Assembly (NCBI GenBank): GCA_038087875.1
Contig: CM075990.1
Span: 11,534,001 to 11,598,000, forward strand
Origin: Malacoraja senta
Lineage: Eukaryota
Length of the DNA stretch: 64,000 bases
Reading direction: 5' to 3'
Below, one piece after another: positions 17,395-57,234 of the stretch. Positions within the stretch are counted from its first letter, which is position 1; each line of letters begins with the position of its first letter. The position numbers and the translations under genes are program-made. The notes under the pieces were generated by a model. That model was not told the origin of the DNA. It did not search any database and was given only the letters and a program-made list of their open reading frames with translations.

Positions 17395-17669
17395 GTGTTA
17401 AAGAAGGAACTGCAGATGCTGGAAAATCGAAGGTACACAAAAATGCTGGACAAACTCAGCGGGTGCAGCAGCATCTATGGAGCGAAGGAAATAGGCAACG
17501 TTTCGGGCCGAAACCCTGAAGGAAATAGGCAACGTTTCGGGCCGAAACCCTGAAGGAAATAGGCAACGTTTCGGGCCGAAACCCGGAAGGGTTTCGGGCC
17601 GAAACGTTGCCTATTTCCTTCGCCCCATAGATGCTGCTGCACCCGCTGAGTTTCTCCAGCATTTTTGTC
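17395..17669. mobile_element. Penelope-derived fold-back insertion (second subfamily) with 14-bp TSD, inside a SINE
   Basis: aacctacatacctt at 17381-17394 and 17670-17683, inverted arms, and an internal unit of about 34 bp repeated three times. Confidence 0.85.
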
Positions 17670-29400: not shown

Positions 29401-29977
29401 CAACATCTTTGGTTATCTCTTATGGGGAAAGAACACTGCCAAGGTATGCACTGGTAACACGACAACAGGGCCTTCATTGCGTGATGGACCAAGCAATTTC
29501 CTTCTGATCCCAACCATTTTATGAATTACACTGTTTTTTGGAGGTAATATTATAAAAGAGACTTTCCTATCAAATATTATGAGGGAGTGATATTTAATTT
29601 GATGTTTAATTAATTCACTGAATACAGTGGGTAGAATCAAACCAATAATTGAATTTTGAATTATTATATTACTCTGATATTGCTGTGACATTATTTCCTG
29701 CAGATCTTTAATTAAAGGATATTCATTCACCTCCGCCTTGCTGTTACTTCAGCCTTTTCCAGTAGGAAATACAGAGATAAAAATAATTAATTTAACCCAA
29801 TTTGCCGTTTTGATACTTAATTACGAAAACTTGGATTGGGATTGCAGGCATTGAAGTTAATTCAATAGTAATTAAAAGATGTATGTAAATTATTGATTAT
29901 AATTAATGGACCTAATGGTAGCATGATGTTTAACCTATTTAGAGTTGAAGTTGGTGGGATAATTTCAAAACCACTTT

Positions 29978-30118
29978 TTAGTTTAGTTTAGTTTAGTTTA
30001 GAGACCATAATAGAAACAGGCCCTTTGGCTCACCAAGTCCACACCGACCAGCGATGCCCGCACATTAACACTATCCTACACATACTAGGGACAATTTTAC
30101 ACCTACACTAAGCCAATT
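29978..30118 (-). mobile_element. V-SINE/HE1-type SINE 3' part (continues at 34531-34556, after the DIRS)
   Basis: ...aagccaATT joined to aacctacatacctgtgcgtcttt reconstitutes the SINE consensus. Confidence 0.85.
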
Positions 30119-30636
30119 TTACTTCGGAGTCACGTGAGTGACTACGTGAAGAAGGCCCGTCAGGGCGCATGCGCGTCATTACGTCGGACGCATTGGCGAC
30201 AACGGCAGTGGGAGCTCGGAGCTCCTTCTGCAACGTGAGTAAATACAACTTCACCAAAGTCGGGGAGACTTTGGAGGAGTTATAAGAAAGTATAGAAATT
30301 GTTTCTGTCTGTTTTTTTCCCCCCATATGCAGGAACAAGGGGACAGGTGCAGGCTGCTGCCGACAAGGAGAGAGAGAGAGCTGCGGGAGCGCAGTCTCTG
30401 AAAGGCAGCCTGTCACCTCGGGGGAGTCGCAAGCCGGTAGCGGTGCCGCGACGGACTTCAGAAAGTGCCCAGCCGGGTACACAGCCAACGCCAGTCGGGC
30501 GGTCGGCATAAGCTAAGTCTGTAAGGGCTATAGACTCCGCAGAGTCGGGCCACGAGAGTCCCGTCGGGGACAGGATACCGTTCCACAGCGGTTATCCAGA
30601 AGGAGCAGCTCATACAGGGGCTGCTCCACAGAGACG

Positions 30637-30877
30637 CTCCAGGAGGAGTAGTGCAGGTGGGAAGCCACAGAGAAGGCTCCGCTGGCAGTGCCTAGGAGAG
30701 GTCTGCCTCATAAAGCCACAACTCCAGGAGGAGTTGTGCAGGCGGGAAGCCTTATGGAAGGCTCCACTGGCAGTGCCTTGGAGAGGCCTGCTTCGTAAAG
30801 CCATACTCCAGGAGGAGTTGTGCAGGCGGGAGGCCGTGGGGACGGCTCCGCTGGCAGTGCCTAGTAGAGGCCTGCTT
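30637..30877 (+). repeat. About 84-bp tandem repeat, about 3 copies, in the DIRS gag region
   Basis: The unit ctccaggaggagt...ggctccgctggcagtgcct...agagg starts at 30637, 30722 and 30806. Confidence 0.85.
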
Positions 30878-31299
30878 GAAAGCACCCTCTTTGCAAGAGG
30901 TGAGTGCAGAAGGGCAGATACGCTCTGACCCTGAGTCCGACGACTTCCAAAGGAGGGCAGGCAGCTGTTAGAGCTGACACCGTGTGTAGCACGGTTTGCC
31001 ATGTCGTCGGATGCTGGTGAGCCTCTGGGTGAGGAACTTGCCACCAGCATAAATGCCAGCCTGGCACAGTGCAACTGGCACAGCTGTTTGGCGAGGATTT
31101 TGCACAGCAGGTGAAGGAGCTGGAGGAGGAGGCTAAGACGGCAGCCACATATTCACCAAAGCGGAAGTATCCCTATAAGGGAGCAGACTGGTCCGGGCAA
31201 GGGACGAGTCCAGCTACGATGCAGCGCAGTTGGCGTTAGGCTGTAGCACCGCCACGGAGGTGAGATATCCAGCTCAAGGCCGGGGAAGAATGCCAGGTG

Positions 31300-32990
31300 G
31301 TAAGGAGGTAAGAGGGTCTGGTTCTCATGTAGACAGATCTAATGTGATACAATTAAATGTTTACCTCAGATATGTTTATACTGAAGGTTATTCAAGGGCA
31401 TCGAATAAAGCTTAAATGCAAATTCTGATTTACCCATGCAACATGTTCCAAAAAAGGAGTTTGACTTCAGTATCACTGAACAATTGGAAGTTCAGCTGGA
31501 ACTTGCAAGCTTATGTAATAAAGGTGTAATTGCTAAGGCAGTTTACCAAACCCATCAGTTTGTGTCCACTATCTTTCCCAGACCAAAAAAGGATGGGGGG
31601 ATGCAGAATTATACAGACCTGAATAGGTTTAACCCTTTTGTACGGTATAGACATTTTAAGATGGAAACGTTTGTGAAGGAGATCTTAAAGATGCTGATTC
31701 AGTGTCTGTTCATTTGCAGGATAGAAGATTTAAAATTCAGCTGGATGGGGAATTATGCCAAGTCAAGGTCATGTGCTCATGGCTTAGCTAAATAATATCT
31801 TGATTGTAGGACAATCAAAGGAAACAGCTGAAGCATCAGTGGCAGTTGGTAAAAACCAATTTTAAATGGGCTTTATAAGCTATTCTGAGGAATCTAAATT
31901 TATACCTGTGACATAAATTGACTAGTTGGGTTCACAATGGACTTAATCAACATCATTGTGACCTTGCCCAGGCAAAAAAGGGTACAGCTAATTAAGAGCT
32001 ATATCAAGTTAATTGCTAACTCACAGCCTTCAATTAGCCAGGTGACAAGACTGCTGTGGTAATGGCTGGCAGCATTTCCAGCAGTTCAATATGGCCACTT
32101 TATTATCTACAATTACAAAGGTCAAAGGAACAAGCATTGAGGATACATTGGGGTCATTATAATAGACCTATGCTTCTATCAATAGAGGCTGTTGCTGATG
32201 TACAATGGTGGATTCAGCATGTGTCCACTAGTAGTTCCAAAGTGTTATTGGACCAAGCTTCCATGATTTGCAGACAGATGTCAGAGCACTTGGGTAGGGT
32301 GCTACTGATACAAGATCCAGTGGTGGAGACAGATGAACATTGCTTCTGCATACATGGGGAATTAACCAAGAGTATTTTATGGACTCAAGGCTTATGGCAC
32401 TAACTAAACTAGTTTGCATGTGCAGTGCAAAATAGACAACACTGCAGCAGTTGCTGATATGAATCACATGGGTGGAATCAAATCGTTATCATGTGACAGG
32501 TTGGCAAATACAATTGGACCTGGAGTAGGGATAGAGAGATTTGGATTGGAGCTATCTATCTGCCAGGGAAACTTAATGTAGTACCAGATGGCAGTTCACG
32601 AAAATTCCATCATAACACAGAGTGGATGTGGAACCAGGATGTGTTCAAGAACATAGTACTTCTATATGGAAGGCCAAAATATGTTTCATAGGCACCAGAT
32701 CCAGGGGCAGTGGCAATTGATGCTTTTTCACTAAATTGGGATGATATGTTTGTGTATATTTTCCCACCATTCTGCCTCATAGGTCGGTGTTTGAGAAAAT
32801 CAAGCAGGATGCCGCTTCAGGTGTTTTGGTGATATTTAATTGCCTGATTCAACCATGGTTCCCTTTGATGTTACAGATAGCGATCCAACCTCTTTTTGCT
32901 GATTCCAAACAGTAGGAATTTGCTGGAGCATCCAGTAACGCATTAAGTTCATCCGTTATGTGACGGTATGGATCTGTTAGTTTGCAGGTT
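31300..32990 (+). pseudogene. DIRS pol remnant: RT, RNase H and methyltransferase-like domain
   Basis: FVSTIFPRPKKDGG and YRHFKMETF (RT); IDNTAAVADMNHMGG (RNase H); AVAIDAFSLNWDDMFVYIFPPF (MT-like). There are many frameshifts and stops. Confidence 0.88.
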
Positions 32991-32999
32991 TCAAGAATG

Positions 33000-33980
33000 C
33001 CTTACATTGGTCGAGGACTTTCTAGGCCAACGGTGTATATACTCGCTGCAGTCTGGAGAAAGAGTACTCAAAAACAGTATATGACTTATGGGAAAAAAAA
33101 GAAATTAAAAAGGAACAATATTGTGTTCAAAAGAATATTCAATATGATACTGTAATTATTGAAAATGTGTTAGAGTTTATCTACACTTTATTATGATGAA
33201 GGTCTTAGCTATACTGCTATCAATACAGCTAGAAGTGCTTTGTCCGCATATCTTGTAATAGGTACACGGACACAAAGTATAGGTTCTCACCCTCTCATAT
33301 CTAGGTTGATGAAAAGAATCTAATTCCAAACCGCCTAAGCCTAGGTATATGGTAATCTGCGAGGTAAGTGTTGTTCGTAACATACTTCGTCATTGGGTCC
33401 CTGTCACGGCTATAACTTTGTTAAAATTAACGATGAAATTGGCTATGCTAATGGCATTGGTGTCAGTACAGAGAGTGCAGATTTTCCAAAAAACTTCAGT
33501 TCGAGAGAATGGAAGTGAATACAGAGAATGTTCTGTTTTATATTTCTGACCTGCTCAAACAAAGCAGGCCAGGTGAGACAGGTTTTAAGATTGTGTTCTC
33601 AGCATATCCTACAGCTCCATGTTTATGTGTAAGGACACATTTGTTACATTACATTGAAGCCACAAGGGCTTTAAGACAAGAAGAAACAGGATTATTTGTC
33701 AGTTACAAAAAGCCAACATAAAAGAGTGGCAGTTCAGACTATCTCAAGGTGGTTAAAGCAAGAGTTGGTTCAGGCAGGAATTAACATTTATGTGTTTACA
33801 TCGCATTCCACTAGCGCAGTAGCAACATCCGCGGCCAGGGCGATGGACGTTCCCATCGACCATATATTAAAAGCCGCAGGTTGGAAAAATGAACTTGTGT
33901 TTTCAGCAATACTACCATCGGCCGATTGCCGATGGAGGGCTGTTTGCTAACTCAATATTGAGTGCTGTTGCTATTGTTTA
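33000..33980 (+). pseudogene. DIRS tyrosine recombinase remnant
   Basis: GLSYTAINTARSALS, ISDLLKQSRPG, TISRWLK and FTSHSTSAVATSAARAMDVPIDHILKAAGW. The catalytic HSTR motif has decayed to HSTS. Confidence 0.88.
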
Positions 33981-34191
33981 AAGTCTGTTTTTCAATACTG
34001 TTTCATTCTGTTTCGTTTGTTGCCCTAAATTAAGAGGGTTTATTGGTTGTTTTATGACCAAAAATAAAACTGTTTTGTTTTTGCATGATATGCAATGTCA
34101 TGTTTACAGCATTATTGATGATACTCAGTCAATCGATGCAGTGAGAAGCCGGGATTTTGATCTGCGGCATAAAAATCACAGAGCTTTAAAA

Positions 34192-34303
34192 TCTTCACGT
34201 AGTCACTCACGTGACTCCGAAGTAAAATAGTAAGATTAAACGAGAACTTACCAGTTTGAAGTTTGATCTTTATTTTATGAGGAGTTACGTTGGTGATTAC
34301 GTG
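34192..34303. repeat. DIRS internal complementary region (ICR)
   Basis: Reverse complement of the left terminus (30116-30152) fused to the reverse complement of the right terminus (34456-34530). Confidence 0.95.
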
Positions 34304-35311
34304 CCCGCCACGCCCAACCCTCTCTCATAGAATAAAGGTCATAATGGTAGTTCTCATGTTTCTCATCTTAATATGTTACTTCAATTATTGTGTGGACTGT
34401 GATTTCATACCGCTGCTTTGAAGATTGACGCGCATGCGCCCTGACGGGCCTTCTTCACGTAATCACCAACGTAACTCCTCATAAAATAAAGATCAAACTT
34501 CAAACTGGTAAGTTCTCGTTTAATCTTACTATTAACCTACATACCTGTGCGTCTTTACTGAGGGATCGTTCTCTCCATGACAGGGAAACAAGAAAAGAGT
34601 CAAATAAAAAAGATGTCAAGAGAAATATTCAAGCCACTCCATCAATCTACAAATCAGATCTCAGTGCAGCCTTGCAATGCCATGCTGAGGGATTGTTATC
34701 ATATATTATGGTTGTGATAGACCCAAGAAAAACTAGCTGTAAACAATTTAAAAAATCCATAAGAAGGAACTGCAGATGCTGGTTTAAATCGAAGATAGAC
34801 ACAAAATGCTGGAGTAACTCAGCGGGACGGGCAGCATCACTGGAGAAAAGAAATGGGCGACTTTTCAGGTCGAGACCCTTCTTCAGACTTAGGAATCTAA
34901 ATCTAAATAAAACAATCTATTTCTCTTGACCTTTTTTTTAATGTGACCCACACATTACCCAGCGTATCGCAGGGCCCTGGTGGCCATTGGAGAAGGAAAT
35001 ATAGTTCATGTGTTGAATAATTAATTGGATCACCAAGCGCCTTTTTACAGTATGGAAAGGTCGCTGAAGTTCTTTGGTGGGACAAAGGGTGAAGCGTTTG
35101 AGAACAAATGCTGAGATCCCAAAACGTCACCCATTCCTTTTCTCCAGAGATGCTGCCTGTCCCGTTGAGTTACTCCAGCATTTTGTGTGTTAAATTTTAA
35201 AATGCTGATATGCCTTCCAGACAAAGAAGCATTTTGCACCTCCCATAATAGACTCGTGCTGCATAGAAACACCATCAATTGGACTTATTTGCACAAGTCC
35301 CACTTAGCCAC

Positions 35312-55167: not shown

Positions 55168-55443
55168 TTGTGTCCATGTACGGGATAGCCTTGTGTCCAT
55201 GTACGGGATAGCCTTGTGTCCATGTACGGGATAGCCTTGTGTCCATGTATGGGATAGCCTTGTGTCCATGTATGGGATAGCCTTGTGTCCATGTACGGGA
55301 TAGCCTTGTGTCCATGTACGGGATAGCCTTGTGTCCATGTACGGGATAGCCTTGTGTCCATGTACGGGATAGCCTTGTGTCTATGTACGGGATAGCCTTG
55401 TGTCTATGTACGGGATAGCCTTGTGTCCATGTACGGGATAGCC
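55168..55443. repeat. Minisatellite, 12 x 23 bp (ttgtgtccatgtacgggatagcc)
   Basis: 276 bp of contiguous units with only single C>T variants and no spacers. Confidence 0.97.
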
Positions 55444-57234
55444 TTGCAGATCTGTATTTCACTGGACCTGCTACACGTGACAATAAAGAAACCATTGACC
55501 ATTGGGAAACCATTGAACATTGACCATTGATTGCTAGAGATCTCCAATGTATCTTGCACTCTGGTCTTTATTATGGGCAGATGGAAATATTGCTGCTGTT
55601 TTTGCTGTATTATAATACCAGATCTGAGATCTTGCAGTCTGTACTTAACGTCAGAAATTTCTCATCTCAATCAGTAAGGGAAGCAGCCTCCGTATAATCC
55701 TGCACATGATCAGTCCACAGTCATCTTAGCGTCCACCCACCGCTGAGTATTACATCTGTGTAGAAGGTGAGTGGCTTTTCATCGAGACAGCGATGAACTT
55801 TGCAGAGATCCAAAGAGAAGTCAGGATGTCATTGATGGATTAGCCGGTGGAGCCTCCACCGAAATTCAGGATAAATGATCAAAGGAAAAGTGTCTGGCTC
55901 CGCGTGTCCTGCGGAACGCTGCGGGCATGATGGCTGCACCAAAGACGAAACAGTTGGGTATCCTGTCCTTCCTGCGAAATGTCAGTGACTCCGGGAAGGC
56001 TGCTTCATCTATCTCGGCAGCGGGAGGCCAATTTATCAAACAGGAAACTCACAGGCTCCTCTGACACCAGGACATTTCAAGACCCAAACCTTTAAAAAAT
56101 ATTCTTTCACAAATGGGCTGCTTGAAATGTTATTCTGCAGGCATTGAATATAGTGGAAACTGCTTGTACTGATTTATTTTTCTTTTGTCCTGACATTTAT
56201 TTTTTTCCTCCACCTCTGTGCCCCTTACCACTTTGATATAATTTCTCGTCTATTCTATTTCTAATTTCTCTCCTTTTATTGAAGGTGACCAGTTGATAAC
56301 TCCTTCCCAATTCCATCCGGGCTATTAAAGATGTGCATTTACATAGCATTATGAATCTAGTAAAACATGCCACGGAGGGTAATTCCCACCGAGCTTACAG
56401 GCCAAGTAATCAAAAGTTCAGCCTTATTTCCATATTTTGTTATGATAGTTCAGCTCATCGAGTCTGTGATAGATTTCGGAGAAAGCCCGTTCCCACACAA
56501 ATCTTCCCTGTAATTTATTCTCCACTCACTCTTATTAAATGAGAGTTGTCACCCGGTTGGGTGAAGAATATTCTCCTTATTCCACTCTCAAATGGCCCGC
56601 CTCTTATTTTTGGCAGTGACTCTGTGTTGTAGGTTCCTTACACGGGGAAACATTTCCCACATCTAACCATCTCATTAGAACATAGAACATGGTACAGAAC
56701 AGGAATTGGCGCTTTGGCTCACAAAGCATAATGCTAAATGTAACTAATCTCATCTACCTGTACATTACCTCCATTACCTGCATATCGATGTGTCTATCTA
56801 AAAGCTTCTTAACCACCACTATCATACCTGCCTTCACTACCAACCCTGGCTGTGTGTTCCAGGCAACCACCACCATCTGAGTAAAAACCTGCCCTGCACA
56901 TTTACATTCCTTCACACTTAGCTCCTTTCACAAAGTTATTCCCTCTAGTCTTCGACATTTCCATCCTGGGAAAAAGGTTCTGCTTGTCTCATACTTTATA
57001 TACTACCAGGTCTACCCTCAGCCTCTGTGGCTCCATTATTACCCATCGAGTTTACTCCACCATTCACCTCTCTTAAATTGTGTGTTGTTGATGTCCCTAC
57101 TATTTGTTTTTGTTTTTTTGTTTTATTCTGCTTATAAGTTTTGTAATCTGCTTATTAAATTGTGTAAGGCGTCCTTGAGAGTCTTTGAAAGGTGCCCATA
57201 AGTATAATGTTAATAATAAATAATAATAATAATT

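Follow-up and report, generated by a model that had tools for sequence, protein, structure and literature searches.

The 64,000-nt stretch of Malacoraja senta contig CM075990.1 analysed here (the window) contains a 4,418-nt DIRS1-like retrotransposon at positions 30116-34533, and its identity as such, its circle junction and its conservative insertion without a true target-site duplication (TSD) are all supported. We consider it quite probable that this tyrosine recombinase (YR) retrotransposon copy was drawn from an abundant lineage in which the open reading frames (ORFs) were already partly disabled, that the proteins acted in trans, and that strands were exchanged at a single point of the junction triplet, A^TT. 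The element is an ordinary, coding-dead member of the DIRS1-like superfamily, and the mechanism put forward for it in an earlier note on this DNA is the published one; what comparison with related sequences would add is a refinement, in which a single crossover point takes the place of an obligatory 3-bp homology.

The inverted terminal repeats (ITRs) of 36 bp that the earlier note placed at 30143-30178 and 34426-34461 match at 36 of 36 positions, with every coordinate given there proving right. This core lies within a pair of 53-nt arms of 92% identity, which BLAST extends to 63 nt at 89% (30116-30178 and 34426-34487), and the terminal extension is a 46-nt right extension (rE, 34488-34533). 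The internal complementary region (ICR, 34192-34303), which the same note had taken for an inverted circle junction, is identical to the joined ends at 112 of 112 positions; its letters are those of 34456-34533 (78 nt) plus 30116-30152 (37 nt) in exact reverse complement, with one triplet overlapping. The analysis covered the window and reads a single copy of the element; no second copy was found in these 64 kb, the exact right-terminus pattern gave 0 matches in metagenome and viral contigs, and Rfam gave 0 matches. Membership in PAT or Ngaro, which calls for split direct terminal repeats, was rejected, as the terminal repeats here are inverted.

The insertion split a short interspersed element (SINE) at a single ATT, as had been claimed: the SINE resumes in register to the right of the element, with 23 nt identical at 21, 19 and 14 of 23 positions to three other copies before it stops, and there is no extra copy of the target. 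The empty site could be rebuilt from SINE paralogues, the interrupted sequence belonging to a known repeat, as 13 places in the window match a 17-mer from it with no more than 3 mismatches (3 of them exactly), against 0.18 expected. Target and circle junction have only the letters ATT in common, those adjacent on both sides being different, and the element ends in an NTT triplet (ATT). The presence of ATT on both sides of the element, together with a right SINE remnant of just 23 nt, might be read as an ordinary 3-bp TSD, or as SINE continuity arising by chance. However, where the ICR joins the ends it has a single ATT, and one of the two flanking ATTs must therefore belong to the element; this refutes the TSD, and supports the claim of an insertion without one. 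The remnant, moreover, agrees in register with another SINE copy at all but two of its positions, and we regard the whole alternative as very improbable. The end of the SINE 23 nt past the right junction (34556-34600) is a truncation that may predate or postdate the insertion.

The further claim, recombination at a shared ATT, stands in that ATT matches at all three letters, and falls in so far as a shared trinucleotide was deemed necessary, for related junctions carry mismatches. This copy, matching its target at all three letters, can by itself neither place the crossover nor demonstrate that triplet identity is required. Forty related loci on JGI contigs (L001-L040), one copy each of different families, were therefore compared. 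In the junction core, a 6-nt gap separates two 7-nt boxes in inverted orientation (L'-N6-R'), and the triplet sits on the inward side of R'. Drawn up after 15 junctions had been viewed, this pattern is shared by 20 of the 23 sequences, the window included, that continue for 300 nt or more after the YR (shuffled mean 2.6, maximum 8); among 10 loci not yet read at their ends when it was written, 7 have it. Among 22 junctions, the readable ends (8/8 right and 5/5 left) all break at R', and none at L'; two equal strand exchanges sorted by replication would break both boxes, giving a probability of about 0.0002 for these data if repair bias is ignored. Mismatches fall at letter 1 only at left ends (n = 2, L019 and AcasDIRS1) and at letters 2 or 3 only at right ends (n = 9, namely L001, L031 and seven elements from Table 3 of PMC3266345), so that none of the 11 has the opposite direction (p about 0.003; AmDIRS1 and BfDIRS2, with 2-nt junctions, were excluded). 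Their direction points to a single crossover, A^TT, between the first and second letters, by which the element proper would extend from TT (30117) to A (34531). We infer that identity of the triplet with the target is preferred, not required. The right flanks begin with TTA in 5 of 8 cases (the window copy, L012, L026, L028 and L031), a hint that the target preference may be one letter longer than NTT.

Several points weigh against a single crossover point. The single mismatches may be later mutations, and the comparison draws on one copy each of different families, not on many copies of this one. Dropped from the end count were L038 and L040, which are degenerate and ambiguous, and L002 and L006, in which the contig stops before the junction, while L012 has few letters of flank. 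Read by eye, L008 and L032 seemingly have a spacer of 5 nt, not 6, between R' and L', and L034 and L035 lack a core match.

Two loci in this set have additional structures. A right-terminus-like sequence in forward orientation is located 80-330 nt after the YR in L035, and in L020 a second ICR-sized hairpin (783-905) lies about 500 nt upstream of the left end; the latter element has possibly inserted into or beside another DIRS element.

Across families, the joined ends follow a four-box plan, R'-N6-L'-loop-L''-N4-R'' with a loop of 11-21 nt, in which base pairing of R' to R'' and of L' to L'' makes a single-strand hairpin whose loop varies. The triplet is placed in the stem and not at the apex, and AAT/ATT stands at R' in 17 of 18 aligned junctions. 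The junction of this copy folds far better than its shuffles (z of -6.9 and -4.4), 20 full ICRs give z from -4.6 to -13.7 over both strands, and in 18 of 21 sequences the highest score goes to a partner spacer of 4 nt. In the 18-sequence alignment, two-sided changes occur at 10 of 11 pairs outside the ITR (24 cells, reached in 0 of 500 shuffles, with slid controls far lower), although these shuffles ignore relatedness and the structure was derived from the same sequences. The L boxes pair 7:7 without an extrahelical base in L'', and the spacers of 6 and 4 nt covary and are partly paired. The cDNA-strand fold of this copy contains 6 G.T pairs, and in a strand-neutral alignment it has 4 G.T vs 0 A.C; a folding-strand bias, strong here, was rejected as a family trait, since wobble pairs across families amount to 30 G.T vs 23 A.C, with the complementary DNA (cDNA) strand favoured in 12 of 20. 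In the full-length strand, the perfect duplex between junction and ICR is worth -138 kcal/mol vs -24.5 and -19.3 for the hairpins. A recombinase model of homolog P0199 (predicted local distance difference test, pLDDT, of 72.7, and below 50 at the C-terminus) aligns to Cre with Z 13.9 (root-mean-square deviation 8.8, 253 aligned) and to the integron integrase 2a3v with Z 9.7 (9.8, 250 aligned), and both Cre and Xer rank above the integron integrase.

In the mechanism that we prefer, integration begins with the established reverse transcription of the transcript into antisense single-stranded cDNA, whose ends the ICR restores and joins. As read in the sequence, the joined ends make the core L'-N6-R', in which the triplet sits on the inward side of R'. 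Productive strand exchange by the recombinase would then be limited to a single point, A^TT in R', the partner being an NTT-like chromosomal site, in this case one within an older SINE. The published DIRS1 model, with its ITR, ICR, rE and 3-bp circular junction, has the element recombining with an identical genomic triplet (PMC3266345); in the classical reading, a double-stranded circle does so and the match is obligatory. It is satisfied by the full match of this copy and by most elements of Table 3, which match the junction at both ends, but it has to contend with the eleven directional mismatches, with the 6-8-bp central regions, not 3, of known tyrosine-recombinase cores, and with the box pair at 6-nt spacing present here; in its strict form we hold it to be improbable. 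Somewhat short of an even chance is given to the proposal that the R''/L'' half serves reverse transcription, the RNA 3' end folding back onto R'' to prime the cDNA, and that integration would then use the duplex core L'-N6-R' alone, in a double-stranded circle or in a single-stranded circle splinted by the ICR. [quoted passage not shown] Yet priming needs pairing only, while the box sequences and the 6/4 spacing are kept across families, and priming does not itself explain breaks at one box only.

A further route would resemble that of integrons, with the junction of the single-stranded cDNA folding into an attC-like stem, one strand being exchanged with a double-stranded NTT-like target and replication resolving the product; we regard it as possible, though rather doubtful. 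In favour of such a route are the folding in excess of shuffles, the best-scoring 4-nt partner spacer and the two-sided changes outside the ITR. The attC site, as described in PMC2727003, likewise has a four-box plan, with antiparallel cores R''-L'' and L'-R' and a variable loop, and recombines only at L'-R', in the R' box; here the point is confined to R' by end position in 13 of 13 readable ends, with the choice of cut strand an inference. Integron cassettes can also insert into genomes through a single cleavage at sites with a brief GWT consensus (bioRxiv 2022.09.11.507474), attC/attG crossover takes place after the first letter of an NTT triplet, with a short relaxed target (PMC2727003; bioRxiv 2022.09.11.507474), and in Dictyostelium DIRS-1 the cDNA is single-stranded and junction PCR failed (PMC7192593). 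Against it stand the lack of a family-wide strand bias, the much more stable duplex of junction and ICR, which outcompetes the hairpins, and the origin of the structure and of its shuffle control in one set of related sequences. This junction also differs from attC in its triplet (ATT, not GTT, AAC/GTT not being conserved here), in needing no extra base in L'', and in spacers that partly pair, unlike the unpaired attC spacer; its recombinase, judged by the model of a homolog, may be nearer to Cre and Xer than to IntI. That the junction works like attC is a tentative suggestion, by which identity as attC is not claimed. The broader version, in which DIRS1-type retrotransposons would behave like giant integron cassettes, the extension building the hairpin, a folded cDNA strand being exchanged at A^TT with almost any NTT-like site and replication completing the process, with no need for a double-stranded circle or 3-bp homology, seems to us equally speculative. 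No link between DIRS and attC was found in the literature searched, of which two papers name IntI in tree legends only, and which did not extend to supplements or to the subscription papers by Goodwin and Poulter.

According to PMC7192593, the specificity of the DIRS recombinase is without experimental study, and the circle junction could not be amplified. For work of that kind the box map, with its L'-N6-R' core, A^TT point and extension carrying the partner boxes, provides concrete substrates and mutants. If the folded-strand route were true, a eukaryotic retroelement would share the unusual one-strand recombination of integrons, and a high-copy lineage with a dead pol would supply very many junctions on which to test it.

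Among published elements, ATT is the most frequent junction triplet (PMC3266345), so that its use here is no surprise. AcaDIRS1/2 from Aplysia and LgDIRS1/3 from Lottia, described there, have ATT at both ends like this element, and, as far as lengths only are compared, their ITRs (31-36 vs 36 nt here), right extensions (48-49 vs 46 nt) and ICR halves (39-45 and 86-88 vs 37 and 78 nt) are similar; unlike them, this copy is 4,418 nt long, with dead ORFs and vertebrate-type SINE surroundings. The fish, frog and lizard elements in Table 3 of the same source differ, with ITR cores longer than 100 nt and extensions that measure 26-34 nt. The Dictyostelium element DIRS-1, as presented in PMC7192593, also has ITRs and an ICR complementary to both ends, the latter being required for retrotransposition, but its ITRs are conserved and 304 nt long, its ICR measures 88 nt, and it is autonomous. 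The loci L001-L040, which are of invertebrate type, and insect proteins such as P0003 (labelled Leptopilina) are colinear in pol and YR at 33-42% amino-acid identity, and the loci share the junction core and hairpin plan of this element. A single short DNA match to them (ICR, 80% over 66 nt) indicates separate families. Horizontal transfer from invertebrates was also considered; identity to the homologs is no higher than these 33-42%. From the look of its SINEs the host would be a cartilaginous fish, and the literature searched yielded no paper on DIRS in that group.

The description of the element as complete applies to its termini and fails for its genes, as gag, pol and YR are all broken (Table 1), leaving a copy that is complete at its ends and dead in its coding regions. 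The domain order survives as remnants, pol (comprising the reverse transcriptase (RT), RNase H and methyltransferase) followed by the YR. Lesions in pol were counted on an alignment, tolerant of frameshifts, to a profile built from 14 pol homologs, which carry RVT_1 and in some cases also RNase H-like and Dam matches. The alignment covers 635 of 666 profile positions and contains 8-9 frameshifts and 7-9 stops (31359-33081), with deletions of about 44 aa in the RT core and 14 aa in the methyltransferase near 32676; the shift of 1 nt near 32515 and the gap of 42 nt near 32678 are borne out by the offsets against related loci. A word-based protein search with the RT piece gave no match, and the homologs came from a HMMER search. 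For gag, there was one weak match among 26 queries (E = 0.029, 31084-31146), and no relative of the YR was confirmed in viral contigs among 38 stretches. An autonomous DIRS1 element was thus rejected, since gag, pol and YR frames that are open and retain their catalytic motifs were not found. In the gag-like region, other copies skip about 168 nt at the array of 84/85-nt units (30637-30887), so that the number of units varies within the family, and a contig from run X3 (see below) has extra sequence after 31054.

Contigs of four (X1, X2, X3 and X6) out of 24 listed sequencing runs were aligned to the element, and all four runs contained matching contigs. With 44,206 contig records in X1 and 31,203 in X2, and all 30 bins covered, the element appears very abundant, which is as far as contig depth, not being copy number, can be read; summed depth in X1 is 2-6 x 10^5 over the interior vs 22.6 for the single long right-flank contig. 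One X3 contig (32002-32997, 996 nt) aligns with 15 substitutions and 0 gaps across 5-6 frameshifts and the 42-nt deletion, and three X6 contigs, also with 0 gaps, span four of those frameshifts and the same deletion. Lesions of pol that are common to other contigs were inherited, not acquired in place, and the ORFs of the lineage were probably partly disabled before copying, a pattern suggestive of a non-autonomous lineage, high in copy number and copied in trans. Such an abundant disabled lineage also suggests that DIRS can spread in trans in a vertebrate-type genome. The ability of the Dictyostelium DIRS-1 RT to act in trans, as reported in PMC7192593, makes copying in trans plausible, not fully shown. 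The insertion may be younger than its own lesions: none of 138 paired ICR/terminus sites differ where 4.6 would be expected at 1.7%, the difference from X3 (p about 0.01; upper bound 1.1% per copy). This is a hint only, as the 1.7% was obtained under a different organism label and the arms could have been made alike by conversion. Inheritance of the lesions and copying in trans also face some contrary evidence: the deletions in gag and in the RT core, as well as certain length differences in the YR, are not common to all contigs, X3 and X6 bear the labels of other organisms, and a truncated DIRS-1 failed to complete marked retrotransposition, though its marker remained unspliced (PMC7192593). 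Among the rows listed, with 2-8 contigs per row, breaks in other copies at 34228 and 34534-34535 agree with the ATT edge; an X1 contig (34517-34785) with just 17 element letters was not counted as a junction bridge. In X6, the bins of the ICR and of the right end (34167-34637) have depths of 8,161 and 2,891 vs about 10 elsewhere, possibly owing to a sister family or a short derivative with the same ends.

Table 1. Features of the DIRS1-like element and its insertion site, in window coordinates
Feature	Position	Strand	Remarks
Left part of interrupted SINE	29977..30116	+	Includes target-derived A at 30116; 80-84% identity to best other window copies
Left junction triplet ATT	30116..30118	+	Crossover would lie between 30116 and 30117, judging from related elements
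Left ITR	30116..30178	+	R' box and divergent part 30116-30142; conserved core 30143-30178
Decayed gag-like region	30300..31300	+	Limits approximate; three 84/85-nt tandem copies at 30637-30887
Broken pol (RT-RNase H-methyltransferase)	31359..33081	+	Profile alignment and homolog domains
Broken YR	33012..33963	+	At least five frame pieces; HSTR motif reads HSTS
ICR	34192..34303	+	Inverted copy of circle junction
ICR boxes	R' 34222-34228; L' 34235-34241; L'' 34261-34267; R'' 34272-34278		6-nt spacer between R' and L'; loop 34242-34260; 4-nt spacer between L'' and R''
Right ITR	34426..34487	+	Conserved core 34426-34461; R'' box 34481-34487
Right extension	34488..34533	+	4-nt spacer, L'' 34492-34498, loop, L' 34518-34524, 6-nt spacer 34525-34530, triplet 34531-34533
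Right crossover	Between 34531 and 34532		Putative, judging from related elements
Right SINE remnant	34532..34556	+	In register with left part

The termini and ICR (30116-30300, 34192-34303 and 34426-34533) have a CpG observed/expected ratio of 1.3-1.65, compared with 0.21 for pol and roughly 0.5 for the flanks. The ITR core contains a 10-nt GC palindrome, which we take to resemble an NRF1 site. To the right of the element there are two inverted pairs, at 34605-34940 and 34799-35188 (23 nt and 67 nt, both 91%), which are probably parts of other abundant repeats, and elsewhere in the window near-perfect tandem arrays are found at 55168-55446 (23 nt x 12) and 17484-17590 (34 nt x 3).

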